Source of the DNA: Escherichia phage 241Ecol014PP | Sequence record: OR062943.1 | DNA: 64,000 nucleotides | Strand: one strand, 5' to 3' | Shown here: positions 29,792-63,514 of the stretch, in pieces | How the letters are laid out: each line of letters opens with the position of its first letter | Numbering within the stretch: position 1 is the first letter of the stretch | The notes under the pieces: generated by a model | The model's database searches: none | What the model saw: the letters and a program-made list of their open reading frames with translations, nothing else | What the model was told of the DNA's origin: nothing | Program-made: the position numbers and the translations under genes

Positions 29792-30010
29792 TCACAGATC
29801 TCCAACAACTTCCCAAATACCCCAGTGAGCATCTATATCCTTGATAAAGTATCTTTCTCCACGGTTTGTCCACACACCTATCCCAACTTTACCATCTATC
29901 CCATTGTATACATCTGCCTCATACTCTTTGCCCGGTGTAAAGTGTACACCCATCATAAGGGCTGTTATTCCATTAGGATTTTTAAATTTAACAAATTTTA
30001 CTTTGCTCAT
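29792..30010 (-). CDS. hypothetical protein
   Basis: 72 aa ORF in co-oriented leftward operon. Confidence 0.4.
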   Translation of the reverse strand: MSKVKFVKFKNPNGITALMMGVHFTPGKEYEADVYNGIDGKVGIGVWTNRGERYFIKDIDAHWGIWEVVGDL

Positions 30011-30011
30011 A

Positions 30012-30341
30012 TTACTTAATCCTTGCAGTTACAGTAGCGCTATACCCCATGTAGTTATGAGACATAAAGAATGTAAGCCCTTTAAGTTCAGGATTCTTTC
30101 TAAGAAATCGTTTCAATTTTCGAATGCAATTAACACCATGATCATAGTTTGAGAAATTAAATTTAATACCCTGCTCCATCATAGTGCACACTTCTTCATG
30201 GGTATGCCATTGTCTATCGTGGTCACAAAACCAGTAACCAATACCTTCTTTTTCTTGGATATGCAATCCCCAAAATACTTTATGCATTGGATATTTTGGT
30301 TTTCTACCATGATAATGTAGTTTAATATTCACATGTGCCAT
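30012..30341 (-). CDS. hypothetical protein
   Basis: 109 aa; His/Cys-containing; RBS GGAG upstream on minus strand. Confidence 0.45.
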   Translation of the reverse strand: MAHVNIKLHYHGRKPKYPMHKVFWGLHIQEKEGIGYWFCDHDRQWHTHEEVCTMMEQGIKFNFSNYDHGVNCIRKLKRFLRKNPELKGLTFFMSHNYMGYSATVTARIK

Positions 30342-33176: not shown

Positions 33177-33410
33177 TTAATCTTCGTAAATCAGGATTTC
33201 TGCTTTAGGTTTTCGTGCTTTCAGGTCCAGCTCTATCCAGTGCACCATAGCTGTTTCAAGAAAAACAGCTTGGATGCATCCGTCCTCAGCGTGCCCCACC
33301 AACATAACAAGATCTTCACCTTCGTCATCTGCATCACGAACATACAGAATCTCTCCAGATTCAAAGTCTTTCACAACCTGATTGTTGGATAATTTACGAA
33401 TTTTTGCCAT
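33177..33410 (-). CDS. small protein, member of dispersed small paralog family
   Basis: 77 aa; FESGEILYVRDADDEGEDLVMLVGHAEDG matches F-x-x-G-x-x-Y/V...D-(D/E)-x-G family motif. Confidence 0.45.
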   Translation of the reverse strand: MAKIRKLSNNQVVKDFESGEILYVRDADDEGEDLVMLVGHAEDGCIQAVFLETAMVHWIELDLKARKPKAEILIYED

Positions 33411-33411
33411 A

Positions 33412-33675
33412 TCAGAAACCCTCTAAAAAGCTCTTGTAGAAAACAATCTCAGTATCAACACCAGTAACGATCTTGTCGTTCCTGATTTCATCCGTAAGGT
33501 AGGTGTCAAAACGCAGAACCTGTGTGGTATTGTCACACATCCACTCAGCTGTGACCATAGCGAAAATCTTAGCATCTTCATTATCTGGTGTGAATGTTAC
33601 CACCTCGCCGCATTTAAACTTTTCGATGGGTTGAGTGTTAGCTTTCGGTTCTGCAATGGTGATTTTCGTGGTCAT
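33412..33675 (-). CDS. small protein, member of dispersed small paralog family
   Basis: 87 aa; FKCGEVVTFTPDNEDAKIFAMV. Confidence 0.45.
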   Translation of the reverse strand: MTTKITIAEPKANTQPIEKFKCGEVVTFTPDNEDAKIFAMVTAEWMCDNTTQVLRFDTYLTDEIRNDKIVTGVDTEIVFYKSFLEGF

Positions 33676-33935
33676 TACTCTTCCTCCATAGTTTCACCAA
33701 ATACTTCGATACGAGCATCGAGCTCGGTTGCTTTCAGCTCTCCAACAAAATCTTTTAGTTCTTTCTCGTCCAGATCGTAAGCCCACACACAAGAGGAACA
33801 TGCAGATTTCACAATCAGCAGCGTAGATACACGGCCTGACTCTGTGATCATGCTCACAATGGTTCCCACAGGGAACGTGTTGATAGCTTTTTTTTTAACT
33901 GGGCGTTCAGATTTGATTACTACTTCTGTTGCCAT
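33675..33935 (-). CDS. small protein, member of dispersed small paralog family
   Basis: 86 aa; FPVGTIVSMITESGRVSTLLIV. Confidence 0.45.
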   Translation of the reverse strand: MATEVVIKSERPVKKKAINTFPVGTIVSMITESGRVSTLLIVKSACSSCVWAYDLDEKELKDFVGELKATELDARIEVFGETMEEE

Positions 33936-54327: not shown

Positions 54328-54975
54328 ATGGAAGAATGGAGAAAACTGGTTGGCAGGGAGGCCAACTATGAAGTTAGCAGTAAAGGAAGGATTAAAAGGC
54401 TGTCTTACCTGAGGAAGTACAGTAACCAAACAGGTAAAGTTACTTTCAAAGCTGTCCCTGACAGGATTTTAAAAGGTAGCGTAGACAGTAGCGGTTACAT
54501 TCAAGTAAATGTAGATGGAAGATCGGAATTGCTTCACAGGTTAATTGCCGAGACCTTTCTAGAGCCTCCTTCAAAAGAGCTTGTAGAGGAATGTAAGGCA
54601 GCAGGGCTGGACTATGTGCCGATCAATCATAAAGACCATAACCGCCTAAACAATGCTGCTGACAACCTTGAATGGGCCTCGCCTTCAAAAAATGCACAAG
54701 ATGTGGACTACGACTACCATAAAACAAGAGGGGAAAGTTCATACTGTGCAAAACTTAAAGAGCGAGATGTTGACGAAATATTAAAGCTTTCCAAAACAGG
54801 TATGTCACAGCAAGCTATAGCAGATCTTTTCGGTGTTAATCAGATAACCATTTCCAATATCTTGACAGGTAGGAGTTGGGCATGGTACACTGGGATACCT
54901 AAAACCGCAAGGTGTAAAAACAAAAGGGGGAGATCCCCGAAAAGCATGTCTGAGCAAAATTTCTCTGTAAGCTGA
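54328..54975 (+). CDS. free-standing HNH homing endonuclease (NUMOD4-like N-terminus + HNH + C-terminal HTH)
   Basis: 215 aa; EEWRKLVGREANYEVSSKGRIKR; INHKDHNRLNNAADNLEWASPSKN; C-terminal MSQQAIADLFGVNQITISNIL. Confidence 0.75.
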   Translation: MEEWRKLVGREANYEVSSKGRIKRLSYLRKYSNQTGKVTFKAVPDRILKGSVDSSGYIQVNVDGRSELLHRLIAETFLEPPSKELVEECKAAGLDYVPINHKDHNRLNNAADNLEWASPSKNAQDVDYDYHKTRGESSYCAKLKERDVDEILKLSKTGMSQQAIADLFGVNQITISNILTGRSWAWYTGIPKTARCKNKRGRSPKSMSEQNFSVS

Positions 54976-55034
54976 TTGTCACTAATGTAAACTATCAACA
55001 CATGGAAGTGTTGTTGAGCAAAGAGGAGACTTTT

Positions 55035-55319
55035 ATGGTAGTAGAACCAACAAAAACATTTACATCTATGACTATCCCTGTTATTATGCAGGTGGAGTGT
55101 GTTCAGGTATCTCAAGTGTGGCCTGGCACCAAAATCCCAACAGGGCCTGATTTCTTTCAGGTTGGCAAAGTGTACAATGTCTGGAAGGCACCAGATTGTT
55201 ACCCTTTCATTAAAGATGACCGTGGGATGCTGTGGTATCTTGGAAATGATTTGACACTGCACCTTGGGAATGCTATTATTGCAGTATTCAGACTTAACAA
55301 GAAGGAGACCGATCAATGA
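55035..55319 (+). CDS. small protein, paralog-family member
   Basis: ATG 55035 with RBS AGAGGAG (track start 55002 less likely); FQVGKVYNVWKAPDCYPFIKDDRGMLWY. Confidence 0.4.
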   Translation: MVVEPTKTFTSMTIPVIMQVECVQVSQVWPGTKIPTGPDFFQVGKVYNVWKAPDCYPFIKDDRGMLWYLGNDLTLHLGNAIIAVFRLNKKETDQ

Positions 55320-55543
55320 CAACTTTGGTTAAAGCTACTTTTGTAGAAGAAAAGATGACAGACCTGTCCTTCTTTAAAGAAGGAAAGACCTACGAGGTTT
55401 ATTACGATAAAGATCGTGCAAACAAGATGATTAAAGACGAGGAAGGGATTGCCTGGTTTATCTCCCATCTGGCAAACGGTGAGTATCATATCTACGGAAC
55501 CACCCTGCTTGCCAAGTTTGTAGCTGTCGAAGAGGACCTATGA
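55316..55543 (+). CDS. small protein, paralog-family member
   Basis: 75 aa; FKEGKTYEVYYDKD...DEEGIAWF. Confidence 0.4.
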   Translation: MTTLVKATFVEEKMTDLSFFKEGKTYEVYYDKDRANKMIKDEEGIAWFISHLANGEYHIYGTTLLAKFVAVEEDL

Positions 55544-55734
55544 AAGTAAAGTATCTGGCTGAGGGCATGAGCAGGTATTTTACCCTTGGTGAAGAATATT
55601 GGCCCTTTACAAACAACGGTGATGTCTACGTGAAAGATAATTTCGGCACGCCGTGGTTTCTGCACTCTAATGGGCTGGGATACTCCATTTACTGCGGTGC
55701 AGTGAACAACACAACTCTTGCAGAGTTCGTTTAG
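55540..55734 (+). CDS. small protein, paralog-family member
   Basis: 64 aa; FTLGEEYWPFTNNGDVYVKDNFGTPWF. Confidence 0.4.
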   Translation: MKVKYLAEGMSRYFTLGEEYWPFTNNGDVYVKDNFGTPWFLHSNGLGYSIYCGAVNNTTLAEFV

Positions 55735-55744
55735 AGGAGGTAGG

Positions 55745-56116
55745 ATGTTAGTAAAAGGTACCCACACAGTCAAACAACGTATTGAAGTTGAGATTGATGA
55801 TTGTGAGCTGAAGCATATTTTACGGTCATGCTCCAACGTTTTGCTCCTTAGTATTCTTCAGGAGCGAGCGGAGAACGAGTTCTTAAATGCACTGGCAGGC
55901 CGTCCTGGTGACTTCTGTGTGCGTAAGCGTGGTGACAACAAGTCATGGCTGTGGGAAATCGATGCCGACTGGGATTACCACAAAAATGAGGGTATAGATG
56001 AGCCTATTCGTGAACTGACGGACAAAGAGGTTCAGATGTACAATGAAGTTTGTCAGTGGGCAAAAAGTCAACAAACTTATCTTGATCCTTGGTGGATGAT
56101 CGAAAATAGTCGTTGA
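55745..56116 (+). CDS. hypothetical protein
   Basis: ATG 55745 with RBS AGAGGAGG (track start 55718). Confidence 0.45.
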   Translation: MLVKGTHTVKQRIEVEIDDCELKHILRSCSNVLLLSILQERAENEFLNALAGRPGDFCVRKRGDNKSWLWEIDADWDYHKNEGIDEPIRELTDKEVQMYNEVCQWAKSQQTYLDPWWMIENSR

Positions 56117-56141
56117 CAGGAAGTAAGATTAGATATAAGAT
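56113..56141 (+). promoter_or_regulatory. sigma70-like promoter TTGACA-N17-TAAGAT
   Basis: TTGACA 56113-56118; -10 candidates TAAGAT 56136-56141 or TATAAG 56134-56139. Confidence 0.5.
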
Positions 56142-56192
56142 GCTTCACACAAACAGAGCGTTGATTGTTTAACACTTAAGGAGACCGCTAAG

Positions 56193-56447
56193 ATGAAAAT
56201 CATGTTGAAACCAGAGTGCGTTGCAAATGACCGAGCTTTTAAAGATTGCACGCTTGGTGCTATTTATGAAGCCGAGTTTTGTGATAACCCTCTGGTAAAA
56301 GCTCTCCTGGAAGAGGGTGCCCCTTTATCTCAAGAAGAGATTGATGAACTGGAAAACTCAGCCCAGTGCCTTACCTTTAAAGATGATGAAGGAGATTCTG
56401 TCTGGTGCACCGTTAACGAAGTGGTTTTTGTAAAACCTGAACATTAA
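56193..56447 (+). CDS. small acidic protein, paralog of 56511-56771
   Basis: 84 aa; KPECVANDRAFKDCT...DDEGDSVWCT. Confidence 0.45.
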   Translation: MKIMLKPECVANDRAFKDCTLGAIYEAEFCDNPLVKALLEEGAPLSQEEIDELENSAQCLTFKDDEGDSVWCTVNEVVFVKPEH

Positions 56448-56450
56448 TAC

Positions 56451-56479
56451 TTGACAAGAAAGATGGGACCTATTATAAT
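56451..56479 (+). promoter_or_regulatory. perfect-consensus sigma70 promoter TTGACA-N17-TATAAT
   Basis: TTGACA 56451-56456, spacer 17 nt, TATAAT 56474-56479. Confidence 0.7.
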
Positions 56480-56510
56480 GGCCCTATCAAAACGAAAGGG
56501 GACCACAGTA

Positions 56511-56771
56511 ATGACCAAACAATATCAACGAATTAAAGCCAAGGTTAAGCCAGACTATCTGGAGAAGGACTCTGCTTTTCGGGACTGCACAGCCGACAAA
56601 GTTTACACAGGAGCTGTCCTGTTGAACGATAAACTTGAAGTAGATGTGCTGGGTAAAGAGGCCGTTATCGAGGATGACAACGGTGACTGTGTTTTCTGCA
56701 CCACACGGGAGCTGGAAGTCTTAGAATACTTCGGTGAAATCTTCAACTCCTTAGACGACGAGGAAGCGTGA
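56511..56771 (+). CDS. small acidic protein, paralog of 56193-56447
   Basis: Start moved to ATG 56511 because track start 56451 coincides with promoter; KPDYLEKDSAFRDCT...EDDNGDCVFCT. Confidence 0.45.
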   Translation: MTKQYQRIKAKVKPDYLEKDSAFRDCTADKVYTGAVLLNDKLEVDVLGKEAVIEDDNGDCVFCTTRELEVLEYFGEIFNSLDDEEA

Positions 56772-57160
56772 TGAAAAATATTTGGGATATTGATATCTTT
56801 GAAGCCTCTAAGCTTGACGGTGCTGATGGAGTTATTATGGTGTCTGATGGCAAGGCAACACTAACTTCTGGAGATATCATCTATGCCTTGGACGAGCTGG
56901 CGCTTCTGAAATCTACCGGTAACACTTTAGAGGAGCGTCTTCAAGGCTTCGCCTTCAAAGAAGGCACAAATACCGCCATGATGTGCACCACACGGACAGT
57001 TCAGGTTGGTAACGGTGTCTATATGATCATTGCTGTGTGTCCTAAATTCAGCAACGTCAATAAAGATGATGCTGACGCTGTCAACGATGGGGTTGTTCTC
57101 TTCGTGGGTGACGCTATGGCAGATCTGATGAATGCAGGAGAAGCAGCAAATGAAGACTGA
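56768..57160 (+). CDS. hypothetical protein
   Basis: 130 aa; ATGA overlap. Confidence 0.45.
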   Translation: MMKNIWDIDIFEASKLDGADGVIMVSDGKATLTSGDIIYALDELALLKSTGNTLEERLQGFAFKEGTNTAMMCTTRTVQVGNGVYMIIAVCPKFSNVNKDDADAVNDGVVLFVGDAMADLMNAGEAANED

Positions 57161-57452
57161 AAACATCACCCCAGCAGGGTTTTTAAAAGTATACCGTGAA
57201 CTGCTATATACTACAGAGGACAGTGTTCTAGAGTATCCAGAATATCTTTTGCTGTATAAGTATCTGCAGGAGGCTGGTGAAAATCTGCCAGTTAGTGCAG
57301 AAGGTGGTCCGAACTGGATATACAGCGCATGGAGAAAGGTTGACATTCTCCCAGATCCAGGTAAAGATATGGTAGTTTGGCAGCTTATCAACAACATCGG
57401 GATTCCAATCTTTGATGAAGCTGTTAAAATCTATTTTGAACTTGACGATTAA
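57132..57452 (+). CDS. hypothetical protein
   Basis: 106 aa. Confidence 0.4.
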   Translation: MQEKQQMKTENITPAGFLKVYRELLYTTEDSVLEYPEYLLLYKYLQEAGENLPVSAEGGPNWIYSAWRKVDILPDPGKDMVVWQLINNIGIPIFDEAVKIYFELDD

Positions 57453-57469
57453 TATCAGGAGACCTTAAG

Positions 57470-57715
57470 ATGACTGAAGTAGTTGCTCGCGCAGGACAGA
57501 AAGTACGTTGTGTTGAAGTAGGTTTTGGTGGCAAAGGGTGTCAAAACTTGACTCAAGGTAAGGAATACGCTGTTATTTCTGGTGGTGGCGACGAAAGTAT
57601 TGTGTTCGAGGGCCACATCCTGGATGCTGAAAACTTTGAAATCTTTGACGACGATGGGGATCCGATCACCTGCCTGCTGGACGGGAATTGGGGAACTTTC
57701 GAAGTGATTGGCTAA
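57470..57715 (+). CDS. small protein, paralog-family member
   Basis: 81 aa; RBS AGGAGA; LTQGKEYAVISGGGDESIVFEGH...DDDGD. Confidence 0.4.
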   Translation: MTEVVARAGQKVRCVEVGFGGKGCQNLTQGKEYAVISGGGDESIVFEGHILDAENFEIFDDDGDPITCLLDGNWGTFEVIG

Positions 57716-57725
57716 CAAATACCTA

Positions 57726-57754
57726 TTGTAATTTACAGAAGGGGATGCTAAAAT
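57726..57754 (+). promoter_or_regulatory. promoter-like TTGTAA-N17-TAAAAT
   Basis: Upstream of ORF 57799. Confidence 0.4.
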
Positions 57755-57798
57755 AGTGTCTCCTTCTATGTTGTTCAAATAAAATCGGAGATTCCATA

Positions 57799-58164
57799 AT
57801 GGAACAAATGAACGATCAAGCGTCGGTTGCGATGAACGAGCAAGAACAACCTCAAGAATTTTTCTTAGGGTTAAGTAAAGATCAAGTGTCTCTTTTGCTA
57901 GTGCTTTCTTCTTTCATGGGAAGACTTCAGGAGCTCACACAACAGCCGGAGGCTGAACAATTATTTCAGGCTCTGCGTGAAGAAGAAAAATATCGTCGTT
58001 TGGACTATGCCTTAGGTTGGGTAGCTCAACAACGAGATATGCTGATGGCCCTCTCTGGGACCACAAGTTTTGCAATGGGCCTGTTGGCTCAAGTTCAGGA
58101 CAAATTAATTCAAGCAGGGTTTGCACACACGGCAAACACTAACGAAGAACAAGGAGACAAATAA
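57799..58164 (+). CDS. hypothetical helical protein
   Basis: 121 aa; RBS GGAG. Confidence 0.45.
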   Translation: MEQMNDQASVAMNEQEQPQEFFLGLSKDQVSLLLVLSSFMGRLQELTQQPEAEQLFQALREEEKYRRLDYALGWVAQQRDMLMALSGTTSFAMGLLAQVQDKLIQAGFAHTANTNEEQGDK

Positions 58165-59390
58165 TGAGCGTTATTCAACAATTCGCTAACCCGATGAATC
58201 CGCGTGAAACTGTTTTACTGGCTCACGGCATGATTAAACGCGTCAGCATCAAGCCTATCAAAGGTGCTGATCCTACAACAGGTATTAAAACCACTGTGTG
58301 GCAAGGTAAGAAAATTGAGTCCAGCCACACCATCTCTTTACTGATTTCTGAACTGGATTCCTCTGATAACCTGCTTCAAGGTGGTGAAGAAGTCTGGATC
58401 AGCATGGGTGATAAACTGCTTAAACCGGGTCATCAAGACTCTGTCTCTGTTAAAATTGATGACAAGTGGGAAACCGTAACACCGGGATGGATCGTAAATA
58501 TTCCTTTGAAGGCAAACGAGCATAACGGTAAGACCTATTACAAAGGCTCACTGGCTAAGATGGTCAAGCTGGGTGCAGGAGAGGCTCCAGCAGCGACTCA
58601 GCAGCAAAAACAGCAACAAGGTGCACAATCACAAGGCCAGAAGCAGAAACCTCAGCAGAATGCCAATCAGGACGTTTTACGCATCTACGGTGATGTGACT
58701 CAGATTGTTGGCAACGTGGTTACTGTTAATGACCACAAGATTGGCGAAGGTGCTATGGTTGTCACTGATGAGCAGCTTAAAGACCTGGTGGTGGGTGGTC
58801 GTGTTGCCGCCATTGTTGACAAAGACACCGGAAACATTATCAGTGGTTTCAAAGCCTATCCACCTAAGGCAGAGAACGGCACTCAAGGCTCTGGTGGCAA
58901 GCGTAAATCATCTTACGACCCTATCGGTGTGGAAACGGGGCATAGCATCAATGCGTTGCAGATCATCCTGGATCGCGGGTTTAAGGTAGACGACCCACTG
59001 GGCGTGGCTAAAACACTGCACGTAGTCACCATTGAGCTTAAGAAAGAGTATGCTCAAGCCACCAACCGAACTGAAGATGAAGTAGGTGCCAGTGTCGGTA
59101 ATGCGGTGTTGAACGCTTGTCGCCGTATTGACAAGAAAACGAAAGTTGATGATTTTGCAGCGGCAATTACTGCAGAAGCAAAAGATGTCTTGACTAATCT
59201 GGCTGAACCGTTGTACGATTGGATCAAGAACGGTGCTGGGTCAACCGACCATCAAGAACCTCAGGCTGCCAAACAGGAAGCAGCTCCACAGCAAAACACT
59301 GTAGACGCTCCTCCTGTAAATGATGAGGGAGATGACCCGATGGATCAGAATCCAGCACAGTATGAGTTCGATGACTCGATCCCTTTCTGA
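58164..59390 (+). CDS. protein with SSB-like Gln/Gly-rich linker and acidic C-terminal tip (...EFDDSIPF); possible single-stranded DNA-binding protein or SSB-tail mimic
   Basis: 408 aa; RBS AAGGAG; C-terminus DDPMDQNPAQYEFDDSIPF parallels E. coli SSB ...DFDDDIPF; poly-Q linker; N-terminal OB fold not recognisable by eye. Confidence 0.5.
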   Translation: MSVIQQFANPMNPRETVLLAHGMIKRVSIKPIKGADPTTGIKTTVWQGKKIESSHTISLLISELDSSDNLLQGGEEVWISMGDKLLKPGHQDSVSVKIDDKWETVTPGWIVNIPLKANEHNGKTYYKGSLAKMVKLGAGEAPAATQQQKQQQGAQSQGQKQKPQQNANQDVLRIYGDVTQIVGNVVTVNDHKIGEGAMVVTDEQLKDLVVGGRVAAIVDKDTGNIISGFKAYPPKAENGTQGSGGKRKSSYDPIGVETGHSINALQIILDRGFKVDDPLGVAKTLHVVTIELKKEYAQATNRTEDEVGASVGNAVLNACRRIDKKTKVDDFAAAITAEAKDVLTNLAEPLYDWIKNGAGSTDHQEPQAAKQEAAPQQNTVDAPPVNDEGDDPMDQNPAQYEFDDSIPF

Positions 59391-59398
59391 GGTCAGTT

Positions 59399-59977
59399 AT
59401 GAAATGCAAACGTTGTGGAGAGGACAAGGAGGCCTCCGACTTCTACACCAGTAACAAATCAACGTGCAAAGAGTGTTGCAAGAAGGCCAGCAGGGAGGCT
59501 GACCAATTTGCTAAAGACTCTTCAGAAAAAGGTGTAATACGCGTGCTGTACAAGTCTCAAAAGTGCAACAGCAAGCAAAGAGGTCACCCTCCTCCGACTT
59601 ACACCAAAAAAGAGTTTAAGGAGTGGCTATACCTGAACGGTTACAAAGAGTTGTATGATCAGTGGGTAGCCAGCGGATACGACAAAAGGAAAAAGCCTTC
59701 TTGTGACAGGATAGATGATTTCAAAGGGTACTCTTTTGATAATATCCGTTTAACGACTTGGGGAGAAAATAAAGACAAGCAGACAGAAGATATTCTGTTA
59801 CATAGAAGCACCAGCGGTAGACGGTGCAAAAATGTAAGGAGGTTGGACATGAATGGTAACGTTCTTAAAGAATGGGTATCCCACAACTCTTGTAGCAGAG
59901 AAACCGGAATATATATTGGTTACTACATTCATGAAAAAATTCCAGCTCCAGATGGATACTTCTATGAATACTTTTAG
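59399..59977 (+). CDS. putative HNH-family endonuclease-like protein with N-terminal zinc finger
   Basis: 192 aa; CKRCGEDK...CKECC; degenerate HNH block SCDRIDDFKGYSFDNIRLTTWGEN. Confidence 0.4.
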   Translation: MKCKRCGEDKEASDFYTSNKSTCKECCKKASREADQFAKDSSEKGVIRVLYKSQKCNSKQRGHPPPTYTKKEFKEWLYLNGYKELYDQWVASGYDKRKKPSCDRIDDFKGYSFDNIRLTTWGENKDKQTEDILLHRSTSGRRCKNVRRLDMNGNVLKEWVSHNSCSRETGIYIGYYIHEKIPAPDGYFYEYF

Positions 59978-59992
59978 CACCTAACTGACATA

Positions 59993-60020
59993 GCCCTGCC
60001 CGAAAGGGTGGGGCATTTTT
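59993..60020 (+). terminator. rho-independent terminator; 22-nt hairpin identical to 47349-47370
   Basis: GCCCTGCCC-gaaa-GGGTGGGGC then ATTTTTGTAT. Confidence 0.7.
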
Positions 60021-60039
60021 GTATAAGGAGATCTGAAAA

Positions 60040-60456
60040 ATGACATTAGAAGATATCATTGTTAAGCCTGAGAACTATGACCAATACAACCTGTCAACTC
60101 AATCTGTAGACCTCGGATGCGCCACAGTCAGTGCATGGCTGGTTAACGGAAAAGAGCTTGACGAGTGCCTGGAAGCACACATGTCGGTGAATAAATTCCT
60201 TGATGAAAATACCCACTGGCTAGAGGGTGCAGGAGTATATGCTTCATGGTTGGAGAGTATGGGATTCAACTACCAATCTGAAGAGGGGTGGTGGAGCTAT
60301 TTAGCTATCTGCCCAGAGACGCTGCAATGCTTCATGAAATATTCTGAAGATTTGGAGTACCGGGCGGTGGTTGATAGTGCTATTGCCCGTTATAGCCGTA
60401 AACCTTTTTCCCACGACATTAAAACTGTGGAAGAATTTGTTGAAGTTTTCTGTTGA
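60040..60456 (+). CDS. hypothetical protein
   Basis: 138 aa; RBS AAGGAGA. Confidence 0.45.
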   Translation: MTLEDIIVKPENYDQYNLSTQSVDLGCATVSAWLVNGKELDECLEAHMSVNKFLDENTHWLEGAGVYASWLESMGFNYQSEEGWWSYLAICPETLQCFMKYSEDLEYRAVVDSAIARYSRKPFSHDIKTVEEFVEVFC

Positions 60457-60481
60457 CACAGGTTGAAAGGTGTGCAATTAT
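60453..60481 (+). promoter_or_regulatory. promoter-like TTGACA with weak -10 (AATTAT)
   Basis: TTGACA 60453-60458 overlapping stop of upstream gene. Confidence 0.35.
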
Positions 60482-60505
60482 AACTTCATAGAACGGGAGG
60501 ACGTG

Positions 60506-60532
60506 ATGAACGAAGAAAACTGGGATGTATAA
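60506..60532 (+). other. 8-codon mini-ORF (MNEENWDV) with its own RBS in the leader of ORF 60553
   Basis: GGGAGG 5 nt upstream of ATG 60506; stop 20 nt before next start. Confidence 0.2.
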
Positions 60533-60552
60533 CTAACAGGAGGCCACTGCCC

Positions 60553-60750
60553 ATGATTTATCGAATCCGTGTAAGAGAAGATGCACCAGGCTGTTACTTT
60601 GACTGGCGTGGGTGGTGGTTTCTCCACCCGATGGATGGACTCACAGATAGAATGCTGGATGCTGCCCTTTATACAGATACCGATATAGAATATAATCTCT
60701 ATCTGAAGGACGGTATAGATAACGGCCTATTTGAAGCAATTCCTGTGTAA
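60553..60750 (+). CDS. hypothetical small protein
   Basis: 65 aa; RBS AGGAGG. Confidence 0.4.
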   Translation: MIYRIRVREDAPGCYFDWRGWWFLHPMDGLTDRMLDAALYTDTDIEYNLYLKDGIDNGLFEAIPV

Positions 60751-60818
60751 GAGACTGTGATAGCTATGTTTTATGATCTTCCTGTAGCGCCACCACCTGT
60801 TGAACCCGGAGAACTAAG

Positions 60819-61244
60819 ATGATCTATGAAATGCCAAAACTGATTCGTGACGATGCCCAAAACGCTCACACCATTATTATGGGCAAACGCATGGATATTA
60901 TTTGTCATAAAGATTTCTGGGAAGGAAGTTACTTCACAGAGTATTTTGGTAAACTGGACAATGGTCTGCTGATCCAGTTCTACACCGATGCGGAAAACAA
61001 CATTCCCTGGGAGTTCGAAACTGAAGATGTCAATAAACTTTTCACCTTCCTCGGTATTAAGGTTAAGGCCAAGTTTGAAGAAGGTGAGTGCGACGATTGT
61101 GGATTTTATGAGGTAACAGATTTCTACCTTCCTAGCGGTAAGAACCTTTACTATGAAAGCCACTTCGGTAACTCCAATATGCCACAGTGCTGGACTGAGT
61201 TTTTTGAAATTGCGGAAGAGGAGCTGGCTTACCGTGATTATTGA
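60819..61244 (+). CDS. hypothetical protein translationally coupled to downstream macrodomain gene
   Basis: 141 aa; RBS CCGGAG; 3' end overlaps predicted macrodomain start by 11 nt. Confidence 0.45.
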   Translation: MIYEMPKLIRDDAQNAHTIIMGKRMDIICHKDFWEGSYFTEYFGKLDNGLLIQFYTDAENNIPWEFETEDVNKLFTFLGIKVKAKFEEGECDDCGFYEVTDFYLPSGKNLYYESHFGNSNMPQCWTEFFEIAEEELAYRDY

Positions 61245-61692
61245 TACTGTAGAGGGAGATTTAATCTCCCTTTTTAAGAGCGGTGCTGGTCACCTGATCC
61301 ACGGTTGTAACTGCTTCCACACAATGGGCAAGGGTATAGCAAAACAGATTGCCCGTGAGTTTCCTCAAGCACTGTCAGCCGACAAAGAGACTAGATACGG
61401 TTGCCTAAGTAAACTGGGTGCGTTCTCCCGATGGGAGCACTTATCTCCGATAGGTATTGTCTACGGAATCAATCTATATACCCAGTTCTACCCAGGACCT
61501 AATGCTGAGTATTTCTCAATCCTGAAAGGCTTTGAGCTAGTCAATGAAGTATTCAGCGGATCGACTTTACCATTCTACATCCCTAAGATCGGGTGCGGCA
61601 TAGGCGGTTTGAAGTGGGAACACGTAGAGGACGTTATTAACCTTGCCACTTTCGACATAGATATTGTCGTGGTGGAGTACAAAAAGTGTTGA
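61234..61692 (+). CDS. macrodomain protein (TARG1/OARD1-like, ADP-ribose processing)
   Basis: Start uncertain (GTG 61234 with RBS AAGAGGAG; track start 61153 would overlap upstream gene); GDLISLF...AGHLIHGCNCFHTMGKGIAKQIAREFP resembles TARG1-type macrodomain. Confidence 0.55.
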   Translation: MIIDTVEGDLISLFKSGAGHLIHGCNCFHTMGKGIAKQIAREFPQALSADKETRYGCLSKLGAFSRWEHLSPIGIVYGINLYTQFYPGPNAEYFSILKGFELVNEVFSGSTLPFYIPKIGCGIGGLKWEHVEDVINLATFDIDIVVVEYKKC

Positions 61693-61717
61693 CGACCATC
61701 TTCTGAGGTGATATAGT
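61689..61717 (+). promoter_or_regulatory. sigma70-like promoter TTGACG-N17-TATAGT
   Basis: TTGACG 61689-61694, spacer 17, TATAGT 61712-61717. Confidence 0.55.
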
Positions 61718-61746
61718 TTCCACGACAACTAAGAGAGGAGAGCACT

Positions 61747-61917
61747 GTGGAGACTAAAATCTTAATTCTTGCTGTGGTAGATACAACCGAAGGAGCTATA
61801 TTCGAATCTGCAGGAGGGTATTTCTACCTACCATACGGAAAAAGAACTTCCGAGCCAAGTAAAGATTCAATCCTCAAAGTGTTCCCGTGTGCTTTCTGGC
61901 TGGAGATTTTGGTATAA
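61747..61917 (+). CDS. possible small ORF (56 aa) below ORF-track threshold
   Basis: GTG with RBS AGAGAGGAG; METKILILAVVDTTEGAIFESAGG...; hand-translated. Confidence 0.25.
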   Translation: METKILILAVVDTTEGAIFESAGGYFYLPYGKRTSEPSKDSILKVFPCAFWLEILV

Positions 61918-61943
61918 GATTGCAGAGGATTTGGGAGAGAATT

Positions 61944-62138
61944 ATGAGAAACAAGAAAGAACTTTACTCCGGTGAGTGGATCAACGATCAACAGGTGGGA
62001 GAGGTAACCTGCTTCCGATGTTTTACCAGGTACAATCTTAAAACTGCACCAAAAAGTGTTCCAAAGACTGACGGTTACTACATAAAAGAACCTCATTGCC
62101 CAAAATGTAAATGCCGATTGTACTGGAGCAATCTATAA
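61944..62138 (+). CDS. small zinc-ribbon protein
   Basis: ATG 61944 with RBS GGAGAGA; CFRC ... CPKCKC. Confidence 0.4.
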   Translation: MRNKKELYSGEWINDQQVGEVTCFRCFTRYNLKTAPKSVPKTDGYYIKEPHCPKCKCRLYWSNL

Positions 62139-62142
62139 GAGG

Positions 62143-62170
62143 TTGACATCTGAAAACTGCAGTGTATAGT
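62143..62170 (+). promoter_or_regulatory. sigma70-like promoter TTGACA-N16-TATAGT
   Basis: TTGACA 62143-62148, TATAGT 62165-62170. Confidence 0.55.
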
Positions 62171-62201
62171 ATACGCATAAACTAACAGAGAGCGATGTAT
62201 T

Positions 62202-62393
62202 ATGGTAATTTTTAACCGGGATGGTATCATAGTTAGACAGCACCCGTTCCTTGAATACTATCAAATTGAGCAATGGTGCTACGGGGATTGCAGTCACTCC
62301 TATGGGCAAAGTTGGGGATATCGTACAGTTTTTGAATCAACAGACCTTGACAAAGTAAGACAGAAAGTTTTAGAACTTATTAACAACAAGTGA
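62202..62393 (+). CDS. hypothetical small protein
   Basis: 63 aa. Confidence 0.35.
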   Translation: MVIFNRDGIIVRQHPFLEYYQIEQWCYGDCSHSYGQSWGYRTVFESTDLDKVRQKVLELINNK

Positions 62394-62402
62394 GTATGAT
62401 AT

Positions 62403-62735
62403 ATGGTAACATTAGAAAGACGTAAAGCTATCGCCGCCACACTGGCAGACATCTTTTGGGATTGCAACTTAAAAGATACCCGAAATTGTGGCGCATCTGT
62501 AGATGTATTATTCCCACGGCCCACCATTGTTGCAATGGGAAACCTGTTAAACGTAGTGTACGGAGCATGGGACAAAGAAGGTGGATTCTATGTCTGGCAA
62601 CCTGACTACGGAGCCTGGAAAGAGGTAAGGGGTGCGGATGACTTTGGGCCTACAGTTGCTAAGATGGATGGCTGGCAAATTTATGTTGGAAACGACATGG
62701 AACTGAAAGGCGAAATTGTTTACTGGTTACCTTAA
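62403..62735 (+). CDS. hypothetical protein
   Basis: 110 aa. Confidence 0.4.
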   Translation: MVTLERRKAIAATLADIFWDCNLKDTRNCGASVDVLFPRPTIVAMGNLLNVVYGAWDKEGGFYVWQPDYGAWKEVRGADDFGPTVAKMDGWQIYVGNDMELKGEIVYWLP

Positions 62736-62755
62736 GAAAGTGCAGGAGATAAAGC

Positions 62756-63001
62756 ATGAACAAAGAATGGACATTAGTAGACGGCGTTAAAAACATGCCT
62801 CTCGGAAAGTATATCGTAGCCATGACGGATGAGAATGGCAATGTGGATTTCGGAGCTTGCGAGGTTGTTCTTGCAGGATCTGGTAACTACGTGGACAAAA
62901 CTGGGATAATTAACGGTCAGTTCTACTTTGATCACAACCCTGTTGTAGCGTATATGGCTATGCCAGAGTTCAAGCTACCAAAGGAGTGCGCTAATGTTTA
63001 A
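62756..63001 (+). CDS. small protein, paralog-family member
   Basis: 81 aa; RBS AGGAGA; MPLGKYIVAMTDENGNVDFG. Confidence 0.4.
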   Translation: MNKEWTLVDGVKNMPLGKYIVAMTDENGNVDFGACEVVLAGSGNYVDKTGIINGQFYFDHNPVVAYMAMPEFKLPKECANV

Positions 63002-63191
63002 GCTAAAATCCGCATGGAACATTGCTGTAGGAGATGAGATCCGCATCCCAGGCGGGAAGACCATTATGAAGATATCTCGTATTGAGTACGAAGGTGACCG
63101 TGTATTCCACATCTTTGCAGAAGATGGTCGAGAAATTTATGTGCAGGCAGGCTCTCACATCTATATCCGTAAGAAAGGAGATGACAAATGA
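62994..63191 (+). CDS. small protein, paralog-family member
   Basis: 65 aa; IAVGDEIRIPGGKTIMKISRIEYEGDRVFHIFAEDGREIYV. Confidence 0.4.
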   Translation: MFKLKSAWNIAVGDEIRIPGGKTIMKISRIEYEGDRVFHIFAEDGREIYVQAGSHIYIRKKGDDK

Positions 63192-63514
63192 CAGAGATCA
63201 TCATTTCAACTGCAGGGTATGTATTCCTGACAATCCTTGCGCTGACTATTTTGGTGGTGGTATATGGGATTGTTATTCTCCCTATTCTTGAGACAATTAG
63301 TTTGTGTCGGTGTTGGAGAAAGGCTTACGGTCCACAGCCGTGGAAGGACTGGCCCCACCTGGTGCACATAGCGTTCTCTTATGCCTACGATCACTCTAGC
63401 AGTGCATGCATAACCGGATACCACGCCCACAATTGGAGATGGGAAGGGTTGAGGAAGTGGAATGTTACAAAGACTATACCTCTGCGCATGTACAAAGGAA
63501 AAAGGAGGGATTGA
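63188..63514 (+). CDS. small membrane protein
   Basis: 108 aa; N-terminal hydrophobic helices YVFLTILALTILVVVYGIVILPIL. Confidence 0.4.
   Translation: MTEIIISTAGYVFLTILALTILVVVYGIVILPILETISLCRCWRKAYGPQPWKDWPHLVHIAFSYAYDHSSSACITGYHAHNWRWEGLRKWNVTKTIPLRMYKGKRRD

Follow-up and report, generated by a model that had tools for sequence, protein, structure and literature searches.

Small genes in the window

The window analysed here, the whole 64,000-nucleotide stretch from Escherichia phage 241Ecol014PP (OR062943.1), is on sequence comparison that of a Vequintavirus, an rV5-like myophage of E. coli, with 96-97% identity to Vequintavirus phages. The genes considered below are named by their first coordinate and are listed together with promoter-like sites.

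55035..55319, + strand: family member A1, 94 aa, domain at residues ~35-94 (FFQVGKVYNV...KDDRGMLWY), PHROG 12922
55316..55543, + strand: family member A2, 75 aa, the representative used for structure prediction
55540..55734, + strand: family member A3, 64 aa, with a cross-match to PHROG 3249
56193..56447, + strand: B1, 84 aa, pI 4.2, paralogue of 56511, possible distant family member
56511..56771, + strand: B2, 86 aa, pI 4.3, predicted SH3-like five-stranded barrel, possible distant family member
57470..57715, + strand: family member, 81 aa, pI 4.1 (KVRCVEV...LTQGKEYAV...FDDDGDPITC), PHROG 4927
29792..30010, - strand: family member absent from the earlier list, 72 aa (VKFVKF...HFTPGKEYEA...YFIKDI...WGIWEVV), PHROG 30425
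33177-33410, 33412-33675 and 33675-33935, - strand: three tandem genes of a separate Vequintavirus-specific family, not the beta-barrel family
62756..63001, + strand: singleton, 81 aa, PHROG 7252, not a family member
62994..63191, + strand: singleton, 65 aa, pI 9.1, PHROG 14110, not a family member
56451..56479, + strand: promoter-like site just upstream of 56511, a perfect match to the sigma-70 consensus (TTGACA-17-TATAAT), by consensus match only
54862-54891, 55251-55279 and 56113-56141: similar promoter-like sites, consensus matches

The first-pass annotation had placed all of these genes except 29792, eleven ORFs in total, in one family with one shared pattern. The ORFs themselves are real, as each is present at its coordinates, is preceded by an AGGAG/GAGG-type ribosome-binding site and is an annotated CDS in phages HeinrichReichert (Bas58) and isim. 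The pattern is much weaker than was claimed, with the N-terminal motif h-x-x-G-[KE]-x-[YV]-x-V in only three of the eleven (55035, 55316 and 57470) and D-[DE]-x-G in seven. Sixty other small annotated isim proteins contain these motifs in 0 and 2 cases, respectively, an enrichment that is circular because the listed ORFs had been picked for the motif. All-vs-all comparison by BLASTP and phmmer gave significant similarity within sub-groups and none across them, and each ORF belongs to a separate PHROG. Both observations favour a reading in which only neighbouring tandem duplicates are related and the more distant links (57470, 29792 and the repeat proteins described below) are artefacts of short beta-hairpin motifs of similar composition.

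The clearest sub-group is the trio at 55035-55734, which by sequence comparison can be shown to derive from tandem duplication and divergence. In the all-vs-all comparison 55035 matches 55316 with a phmmer E value of 1e-6, and 55316 matches 55540 at 4e-4 to 1e-3 (BLASTP/phmmer; phmmer value 4e-4), with invariant F/G/Y/KD/G/W columns common to all three. The start of 55035 is supported by a GAGGAG site and by the Bas58 annotation. Among 31 orthologues of 55316, variation clusters at residues 16-48.

A second pair, 56193 and 56511, was previously described as clear recent duplicates. The proteins match at E 1e-8 but share only 32-37% identity, blastn finds nothing beyond 7-10-nt chance matches and hence no similarity at the DNA level, and both copies are present in 115 of 115 Vequintavirus records, at two places per record. 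They are old paralogues, and the earlier description is wrong.

A diverged beta-barrel domain

Five genes, four of them on the + strand (55035, 55316, 55540 and 57470) and one, 29792, on the - strand, each encode a single free-standing copy of the same ~60-aa beta-barrel domain, which has diverged strongly. Its signature consists of a first strand (often h-K-C-h) and a long loop ending in an aromatic residue, then (F/W)-T-x-G-K-x-Y-x-V, followed by h-h-x-D-D-x-G-x-x-(W/F). A merged domain profile was built from stand-alone proteins and repeat units, several of the profile links being made on small alignments (Neff 1.3-2). Against it, the single sequences of the trio score 97.8-98.0% in hhalign, all three being within that profile, and 57470, also within it, scores 98.6%. 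With 57470 left out of the repeat-unit profile, its family profile still aligns at 96.6-97.1% (E 6.5e-10 to 5e-11), and the reciprocal search with the 57470 HMM matches the multi-repeat proteins P0071 (7e-15), P0074 and P0065 (5e-6). Profile comparison thus joins 57470 to the trio. Taken alone, the 29792 sequence scores 89.4%, which places it fifth among the 315 window ORFs; combined with a second sequence into a profile it reaches 92.7% (E 4e-7). It also cross-matches PHROGs 10169 and 17857. This gene is located in a variable cassette.

The trio profile, used in an exhaustive HMMER search, retrieved stand-alone proteins of 60-67 aa and larger proteins with 2-5 tandem repeats. The domain recurs across enterobacterial phages, in single small proteins, in 2-5-repeat arrays and in a fusion to DUF3310, a domain labelled 'nucleotide kinase' in PHROGs. 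The fusion, P0075, has two domain copies and a C-terminal DUF3310, and a DUF3310 gene also occurs on the repeat-protein contig, whereas no window member has DUF3310; the fusion indicates that the domain is modular and nothing more. On a metagenomic phage contig two adjacent genes encode four repeats each, and one of the two, which was outside the profile training, scores E 2e-49. The repeat protein P0074 has no tblastn match in GenBank phages. Word-indexed protein searches returned Vequintavirus orthologues only and a 29-unit alignment query brought nothing further, while phmmer found no orthologues of the listed ORFs in PVP-SE1, Av-05 and Mydo, which belong to other Vequintavirinae genera.

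Against these results, the view that only tandem duplicates are related has already been largely refuted and we consider it highly unlikely. Apart from the pairwise scores and separate PHROGs noted above, it can draw on P0063, a top match of the exhaustive search that is clearly a spurious repetitive translation. It is opposed by reciprocal profile matches at E 1e-7 to 5e-11 over 55-71 columns, by a noise ceiling of about 5% among the 315 window ORFs used as controls (the next unrelated ORF reaches ≤5.6% against the merged profile), by the recovery of repeat proteins outside the training set, and by the isim protein isim_172, which was found by the sequence profile at 95% and independently by Foldseek.

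The earlier remark that this is not a recognisable family was fair as regards sequence, since Pfam and NCBIfam contain no family matching at threshold. The domain cross-matches more than 12 PHROGs, all of 'unknown function', among which 3249, 12623, 12802, 12922, 17857, 16833, 3523, 4927, 10169, 18403 and 30425 match one another. Window members and relatives cross-match 3249, which includes isim_172 (E 1.6e-26), 4927, 10169, 17857, 16833 and 3523 (315 aa), the multi-repeat form, although PHROGs holds these families apart and gives none of them a function or a described domain. The nearest Pfam entry is DUF7244 (PF23896), to which 57470 has a weak sub-threshold match (E 0.038, 14.5 bits) and the repeat proteins P0069 and P0074 match at E 2e-4, also below threshold. 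Scores range from 14 to 22 bits (best relative 21.8) against a gathering threshold of 27 bits, and only 3 of the 29 domain units give a match (E ~0.1).

The position of 56193 and 56511 is less clear. They probably represent a distant SH3-like offshoot of the family, as their group profile aligns with the merged profile at 61.3% (E 7.9e-5) in motif register, their single sequences (18.8% and 6.5%) take ranks 6 and 7 both among the 315 window ORFs and among 72 annotated isim proteins, straight after the true members, and they lie within the 55035-57715 cluster. There is nevertheless an appreciable chance that they form an independent SH3-like family outside the superfamily, in which case the motif likeness (C-T-x-x-x-x-Y ... 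D-D-x-G-D) would be a generic strand-turn-strand signature of small acidic barrels. An HMM link to the superfamily is absent both ways, individual sub-profiles align at just 0.4-7%, and PHROGs 12544, 11936 and 17459, to which the pair corresponds, are absent from the cross-match network. A search of IMG/VR with the pair's alignment profile returned two Vequintavirus contigs only, and isim_211, tried as a bridge to 57470, gave no link.

The five remaining listed ORFs score 0.1-2.3% against superfamily profiles, which is noise level, and have no shared PHROG cross-matches; a single family of eleven is rejected. Genes 33177, 33412 and 33675 are weakly similar to one another in the all-vs-all comparison and in leave-one-out HMM searches (E 6e-4 to 1e-3); 33412 aligns with the 33675 family over its full length (hhalign 70%, E 3.9e-5), and 33177 does so weakly (3%). 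The three give no signal against the superfamily (0.1-0.5%), and a higher value for 33177 (14.7%) covers 6 aligned columns only and was treated as spurious. Gene 62756 reaches ≤0.6%, falls outside the best 20 when the 315 window ORFs are ranked by the merged profile and has no cross-match into the PHROG network. Its W...P...G ... M-P-E-x-x-L-P pattern resembles DUF551, but Pfam gives no match and the assignment is not claimed. Gene 62994, the sole basic protein of the set, scores 0.2-0.8%. What stands of the expanded family proposed on both strands is four to six of the eleven listed ORFs plus 29792, the only member on the - strand, making five, perhaps seven, small genes in the window.

Predicted fold and comparison with Gp54

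The fold was modelled for one of the five family members, 55316. The confident prediction is a rare six-stranded barrel in which a prominent loop joins the first two strands, as in the solved structure of Gp54 from phage Bas11 (PDB 9AXB). Foldseek matched the model to many small coliphage proteins at TM 0.6-0.8, isim_172 among them. The model of 56511 (pLDDT 82.5) is SH3-like, lacks the Gp54-like fold and does not retrieve 9axb as a structural query, so the six-stranded topology may cover just part of the superfamily. SH3 and SH3-like small beta-barrels, such as the yeast Sho1 SH3 domain (2VKN), are among the closest known systems.

In phage Bas11 (JohannLBurckhardt), Gp54 is a protein to which the CapRel defence system responds (Zhang et al., Nature 2024, PMC11578894). 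Its topology is described as very rare and the protein has so far been reported from T1-like phages only. The phage can dispense with Gp54, which unfolds strands 1 and 6 before it binds CapRel-SJ46 and has been suggested to inhibit another defence system; even its close homologues fail to activate CapRel-SJ46 (PMC11578894). Like the window members it is a small (64-75 aa) stand-alone phage protein encoded within a block of small hypothetical genes. Alignment of the two sequences by eye puts F-K-x-G before strand 2, G-h-x-W in strand 4 and a third Gly turn at equivalent positions, and the best local hhalign alignment is in the same register. In tuinn, FSL SP-126 and Supreme284 a superfamily member adjoins the Gp54 homologue gene. 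The Gp54 family differs in being limited to Drexlerviridae (tblastn finds Drexlerviridae-type hosts and phages only). A six-member Gp54 profile aligns with the superfamily profiles at 0.4-2.9%, which is not significant, Gp54 matches PHROG 7421 only, itself outside the superfamily network, and PDB sequence searches with profiles A4, A5, A3 and A6 gave no meaningful match and did not find Gp54. The fold match could therefore be convergence.

Expression context and possible role

Promoter-like sites number 28 between 54 and 64 kb, compared to 17.2 +/- 3.3 expected, and nearly all are on the + strand. Most members are strongly acidic (charge -5 to -12 at pH 7, pI 4.1-5.0), 55035 and 29792 being near-neutral. 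Consensus promoter matches suggest early transcription of the genes by way of sigma-70-type host promoters. The products would be small, mostly acidic, soluble proteins in which conserved Gly, Tyr and Trp build the barrel core and strands 2-4, together with the long loop, form a variable surface that binds a protein of the host or of a defence system, with a separate target for each paralogue. Binding may be Gp54-like, involving partial unfolding and beta-strand augmentation. Small acidic proteins with a variable surface and such binding would likely serve in host takeover or counter-defence, and would in turn be open to sensing by host immunity. The most likely role, on our analysis, is to bind host or defence proteins after early expression from host promoters. 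The first-pass suggestion that proteins of this kind may target host functions draws its support from context and from the published work on Gp54 (PMC11578894).

Small barrels of the SH3-like and OB-like kinds commonly bind nucleic acids, and the genes adjoin DNA polymerase and other replication genes, so that barrels of the Sm, KOW, cold-shock or Tudor-type SH3-like folds acting on phage or host DNA or RNA, not on proteins, were also considered. This appears quite improbable given the strong acidity of most members, a motif without conserved basic residues, and the fact that the sole studied protein with the fold binds a protein (PMC11578894). That the family consists of minor virion or assembly proteins is scarcely credible: it follows only from the rV5 annotation and from isim_172 being named 'putative minor capsid protein' in GenBank, a label that carries no stated evidence. 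The window genes belong to replication/early clusters that carry sigma-70-like promoters and are distant from the structural module, and isim_172 lies between anaerobic ribonucleotide reductase genes. On balance we favour, with some confidence, one diverged beta-barrel family of five genes, with a Gp54-like fold in 55316 and a putative early role in binding host or defence proteins.

A more speculative extension, which we hold to be unlikely as it stands, is that the TxGKxY/Gp54-like barrel is a widespread modular 'defence-interface' domain of phages. Its diverged copies, alone or in arrays of up to four per protein, would bind different bacterial immunity or host-takeover targets through unfolding and augmentation of beta-strands; the counter-defence arsenal of Vequintaviruses would number 5-9 copies, some of which would also trigger CapRel-type fused toxin-antitoxin sensors. 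The occurrence of the domain as intragenic repeat arrays suggests multivalent binding. The analysis brings a dozen phage protein families of 'unknown function' into one domain superfamily, in which 55316 now has a confidently predicted fold with a solved structural counterpart in Gp54, and it provides concrete candidates for existing assays, namely CapRel-SJ46 activation, defence-system panels and pull-downs. Close relatives, including Bas58 HeinrichReichert, belong to the BASEL collection and are amenable to experiment.

Comparison of the eleven small ORFs

The first-pass annotation had described eleven small ORFs as one family of paralogues sharing a loose motif. All eleven exist, each with a Shine-Dalgarno-like site upstream, but the N-terminal motif is present in only three and the D-[DE]-x-G motif in seven. 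All-vs-all alignment (BLASTP, phmmer) resolved three islands of similarity rather than one family: group A (ORFs starting at 55035, 55316 and 55540, + strand), group B (56193 and 56511, + strand; E 1e-8, 32% identity) and the weakly connected group C (33177, 33412 and 33675, - strand). In these comparisons 57470, 62756 and 62994 (+ strand) matched none of the other listed ORFs. Group profiles run against 1,242 six-frame ORFs did not recover members of other groups, and each listed ORF falls in a separate PHROG. Eleven paralogues are therefore not supported by direct comparison. No listed ORF reaches a Pfam or NCBIfam threshold, and the related phages Bas58 and isim annotate all eleven as hypothetical proteins. 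The group B genes, formerly called clear recent duplicates, share 32-37% protein identity without DNA similarity and both occur in all 115 records, which contradicts a recent origin. Within group C, 33412 and the 33675 family align over their full length (hhalign probability 70%, E 3.9e-5) and are probably paralogues, while 33177 is weakly linked to them.

A small-barrel domain shared by group A and 57470

Profile searches show that group A represents a genuine domain, present well beyond this phage; we refer to this domain of about 60 aa as the TxGKxY small-barrel superfamily. Word-indexed searches with group A returned Vequintavirus orthologues only. An exhaustive HMMER search with a 10-sequence group-A profile against 1.84 billion representatives gave 17 hits. 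The non-orthologues include stand-alone proteins of 60-67 aa (P0064, P0068, P0073) and larger proteins (P0065, P0066, P0069, P0071, P0072, P0074, P0075) with 2-5 separate matched stretches each; P0063 was rejected as a spurious repetitive translation. The repeats have in common the signature h-K-C-h ... (F/W)-T-x-G-K-E-Y-x-V ... D-D-x-G, and P0075 additionally carries a C-terminal DUF3310. P0065 is encoded on a 29-kb phage-like metagenomic contig (SRR28381859_682, locus L015) with Prim-Pol and DUF3310 genes, where adjacent genes of 358 and 346 aa (L015 2550-4668) have four tandem domain copies each. The 358-aa neighbour of P0065, which was left out of profile building, matches the profile at E 2e-49. 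In some Vequintavirus alleles of 55035 (P0032, P0033), 11 residues around strands 2-3 are duplicated internally (KAPDCHPFIKE-KAPNCYPFIKD).

Membership was assessed with three profiles: A5 (29 domain units), the 57470 family, which takes in remote homologues encoded by phages of Klebsiella and Pantoea, and a merger of both. The 57470 profile aligns with the unit profiles at hhalign probabilities of 96.6-97.1% (E 6.5e-10 to 5e-11, 62-71 columns) and finds the repeat proteins, P0071 at E 7e-15; on these profile matches 57470 belongs to the superfamily. When 315 window ORFs of 45-200 aa were scanned with the merged profile, 55035, 55316, 55540 and 57470 ranked at the top, followed by an unlisted ORF at 29792-30010 on the - strand (89%; 92.7% as a two-sequence profile), 56193 (18.8%) and 56511 (6.5%), with the remaining ORFs at noise level (<=5.6%). 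The same ranking order was obtained with 72 annotated isim proteins. Group C, 62756 and 62994 scored at noise level. PHROG cross-hits draw the same picture: they connect 3249, 12623, 12802, 12922, 17857, 16833, 3523, 4927, 10169, 18403 and 30425, with the PHROGs of group B, group C, 62756 and 62994 outside this network. The first-pass observation is thus partly confirmed: an expanded family on both strands is retained for 55035, 55316, 55540, 57470 and 29792, but not for 33177, 33412, 33675, 62756 and 62994.

The AlphaFold2 model of 55316, built from the group-A alignment (pLDDT 90.1), is all-beta with six strands, the first two joined by a long loop. Foldseek against BFVD matched it to many coliphage proteins of 60-80 aa, including those of T1-like phages (TM 0.6-0.8). 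Further superfamily copies elsewhere in Vequintavirus genomes are isim_172 (95%) and, as possible members, isim_211 (67%) and isim_190 (20-40%). The first, a 78-aa protein encoded outside the window (PHROG 3249), was found by Foldseek (TM 0.69) and independently by sequence profile.

isim 121873-122109 (L014 25873-26109): isim_172, labelled 'putative minor capsid protein', between anaerobic ribonucleotide reductase genes

As a small-barrel superfamily member, isim_172 probably carries the wrong label.

Group B reached 61% as a profile (E 7.9e-5) with the motif register kept, HMM search gave no link to the superfamily, and its two members are possible outliers. Since this membership lies on the boundary, 56511 was chosen for structure prediction. 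The five-stranded model (pLDDT 82.5; two-sequence alignment, two of five models failed) predicts that group B is an SH3-like small barrel, the broad fold class of the superfamily, without the topology of Gp54, the small barrel protein of phage Bas11 (PDB 9AXB) sensed by CapRel-SJ46.

Genomic surroundings and variable loci

Over 55000-63200, the sequence shares 95-97% identity with more than 100 genomes of Vequintavirus, the rV5-like E. coli myophages that include nom, HeinrichReichert/Bas58 and isim. Sixteen 'Campylobacter phage' records (MG0656xx; host C. jejuni) are also at least 95% identical to E. coli Vequintaviruses here, and their host label or sample origin looks doubtful. The DNA polymerase gene lies directly upstream of the + strand block, and group C lies 3' of a DUF2201 metallopeptidase/VWA gene.

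29792-30341, -: variable cassette with a conserved gene on either side; 109-aa ORF (30012-30341, without Pfam hit) and the 72-aa family member
33177-33935, -: group C tandem array, following the DUF2201 metallopeptidase gene; three copies, versus four in Bas58 and isim (L002 33393-34417)
54328-54975, +: NUMOD4/HNH_3/HTH homing-endonuclease gene, directly upstream of 55035
56451-56479, +: perfect sigma-70 consensus match, TTGACA-17-TATAAT
57132-57452, +: DUF7238 gene, about 100 aa, between group B and 57470 (Pfam E 3.4e-7, above threshold)
58164-59390, +: 408-aa protein with Gln-rich central linker, without Pfam hit
59399-59977: second endonuclease-like ORF, without Pfam hit; labelled endonuclease VII or homing endonuclease in relatives
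61153-61692, +: Macro-domain protein (Pfam Macro E 3.5e-6); relatives annotated 'macro domain' or 'Poa1p-like'

Sigma-70-like sites, counted as consensus matches, number 28 at 54-64 kb against 17.2 +/- 3.3 expected, nearly all on the + strand, and such matches also precede 55035, 55316 and 56193. This enrichment would fit early transcription by the host polymerase. The homing-endonuclease gene 54328-54975 has no counterpart at this position in Bas58 and isim, which suggests a mobile insertion.

The DUF7238 gene is the sole ORF at 55-58 kb assigned a Pfam family. The Macro-domain gene is situated among small early genes, and its product is a possible ADP-ribose-processing counter-defence enzyme. 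The 408-aa protein is conserved across Vequintavirinae and relatives, and its counterparts in PVP-SE1, Mydo, CR3 and an Acinetobacter phage are 27-39% identical to it; the matching stretch of Salmonella phage 40 overlaps labels for a single-stranded DNA-binding protein, a terminase large subunit and a hypothetical protein.

Closely related phages differ at both the 29792 locus and the group C array. At the former, Bas58 and isim encode just one protein, of 135 aa, with the homologous domain as its N-terminal half (PHROG 15992, versus 30425 in the window). In the array, the 33675 copy shares just 40-43% identity with each of its two Bas58/isim counterparts, indicating that this locus turns over quickly.

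Relation to Gp54 and proposed role

Gp54 was not recovered by PDB sequence searches, its PHROG (7421) is separate from those of the superfamily, and a six-sequence Gp54 profile scored 0.4-2.9% against the superfamily. The best local alignment covers 39 columns (E 0.015) in the register that the structures predict; in our own reading of the two sequences, G24/G23, G40-x-x-W43/G44-x-x-W47 and G57/G61 stand opposite each other. In the T1-like phages tuinn (96%), FSL SP-126 (59%) and Supreme284 (80%), a superfamily member is encoded immediately 3' of the Gp54 homologue; in Bas11 the downstream gene, gp53, is not.

L016 598-810: superfamily gene, tuinn
L018 607-840: superfamily gene, FSL SP-126
L019 610-846: superfamily gene, Supreme284

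Remote homology of Gp54 and the superfamily is likely but unproven. New in this analysis are the connection to the Gp54 fold, predicted for 55316, and the discovery of relatives with repeat arrays.

Most members are acidic. The 31 orthologues of 55316 that were compared vary mainly within residues 16-48, which comprise strands 2-4 and the last part of the long loop; the corresponding part of Gp54 touches CapRel (PMC11578894). The invariant residues of group A are Gly, Tyr, Trp and Phe, whose nature suggests turn and core positions. Together with the promoter-like sites and the variable loci, these features would fit members acting as rapidly evolving protein-binding modules for host takeover or counter-defence.
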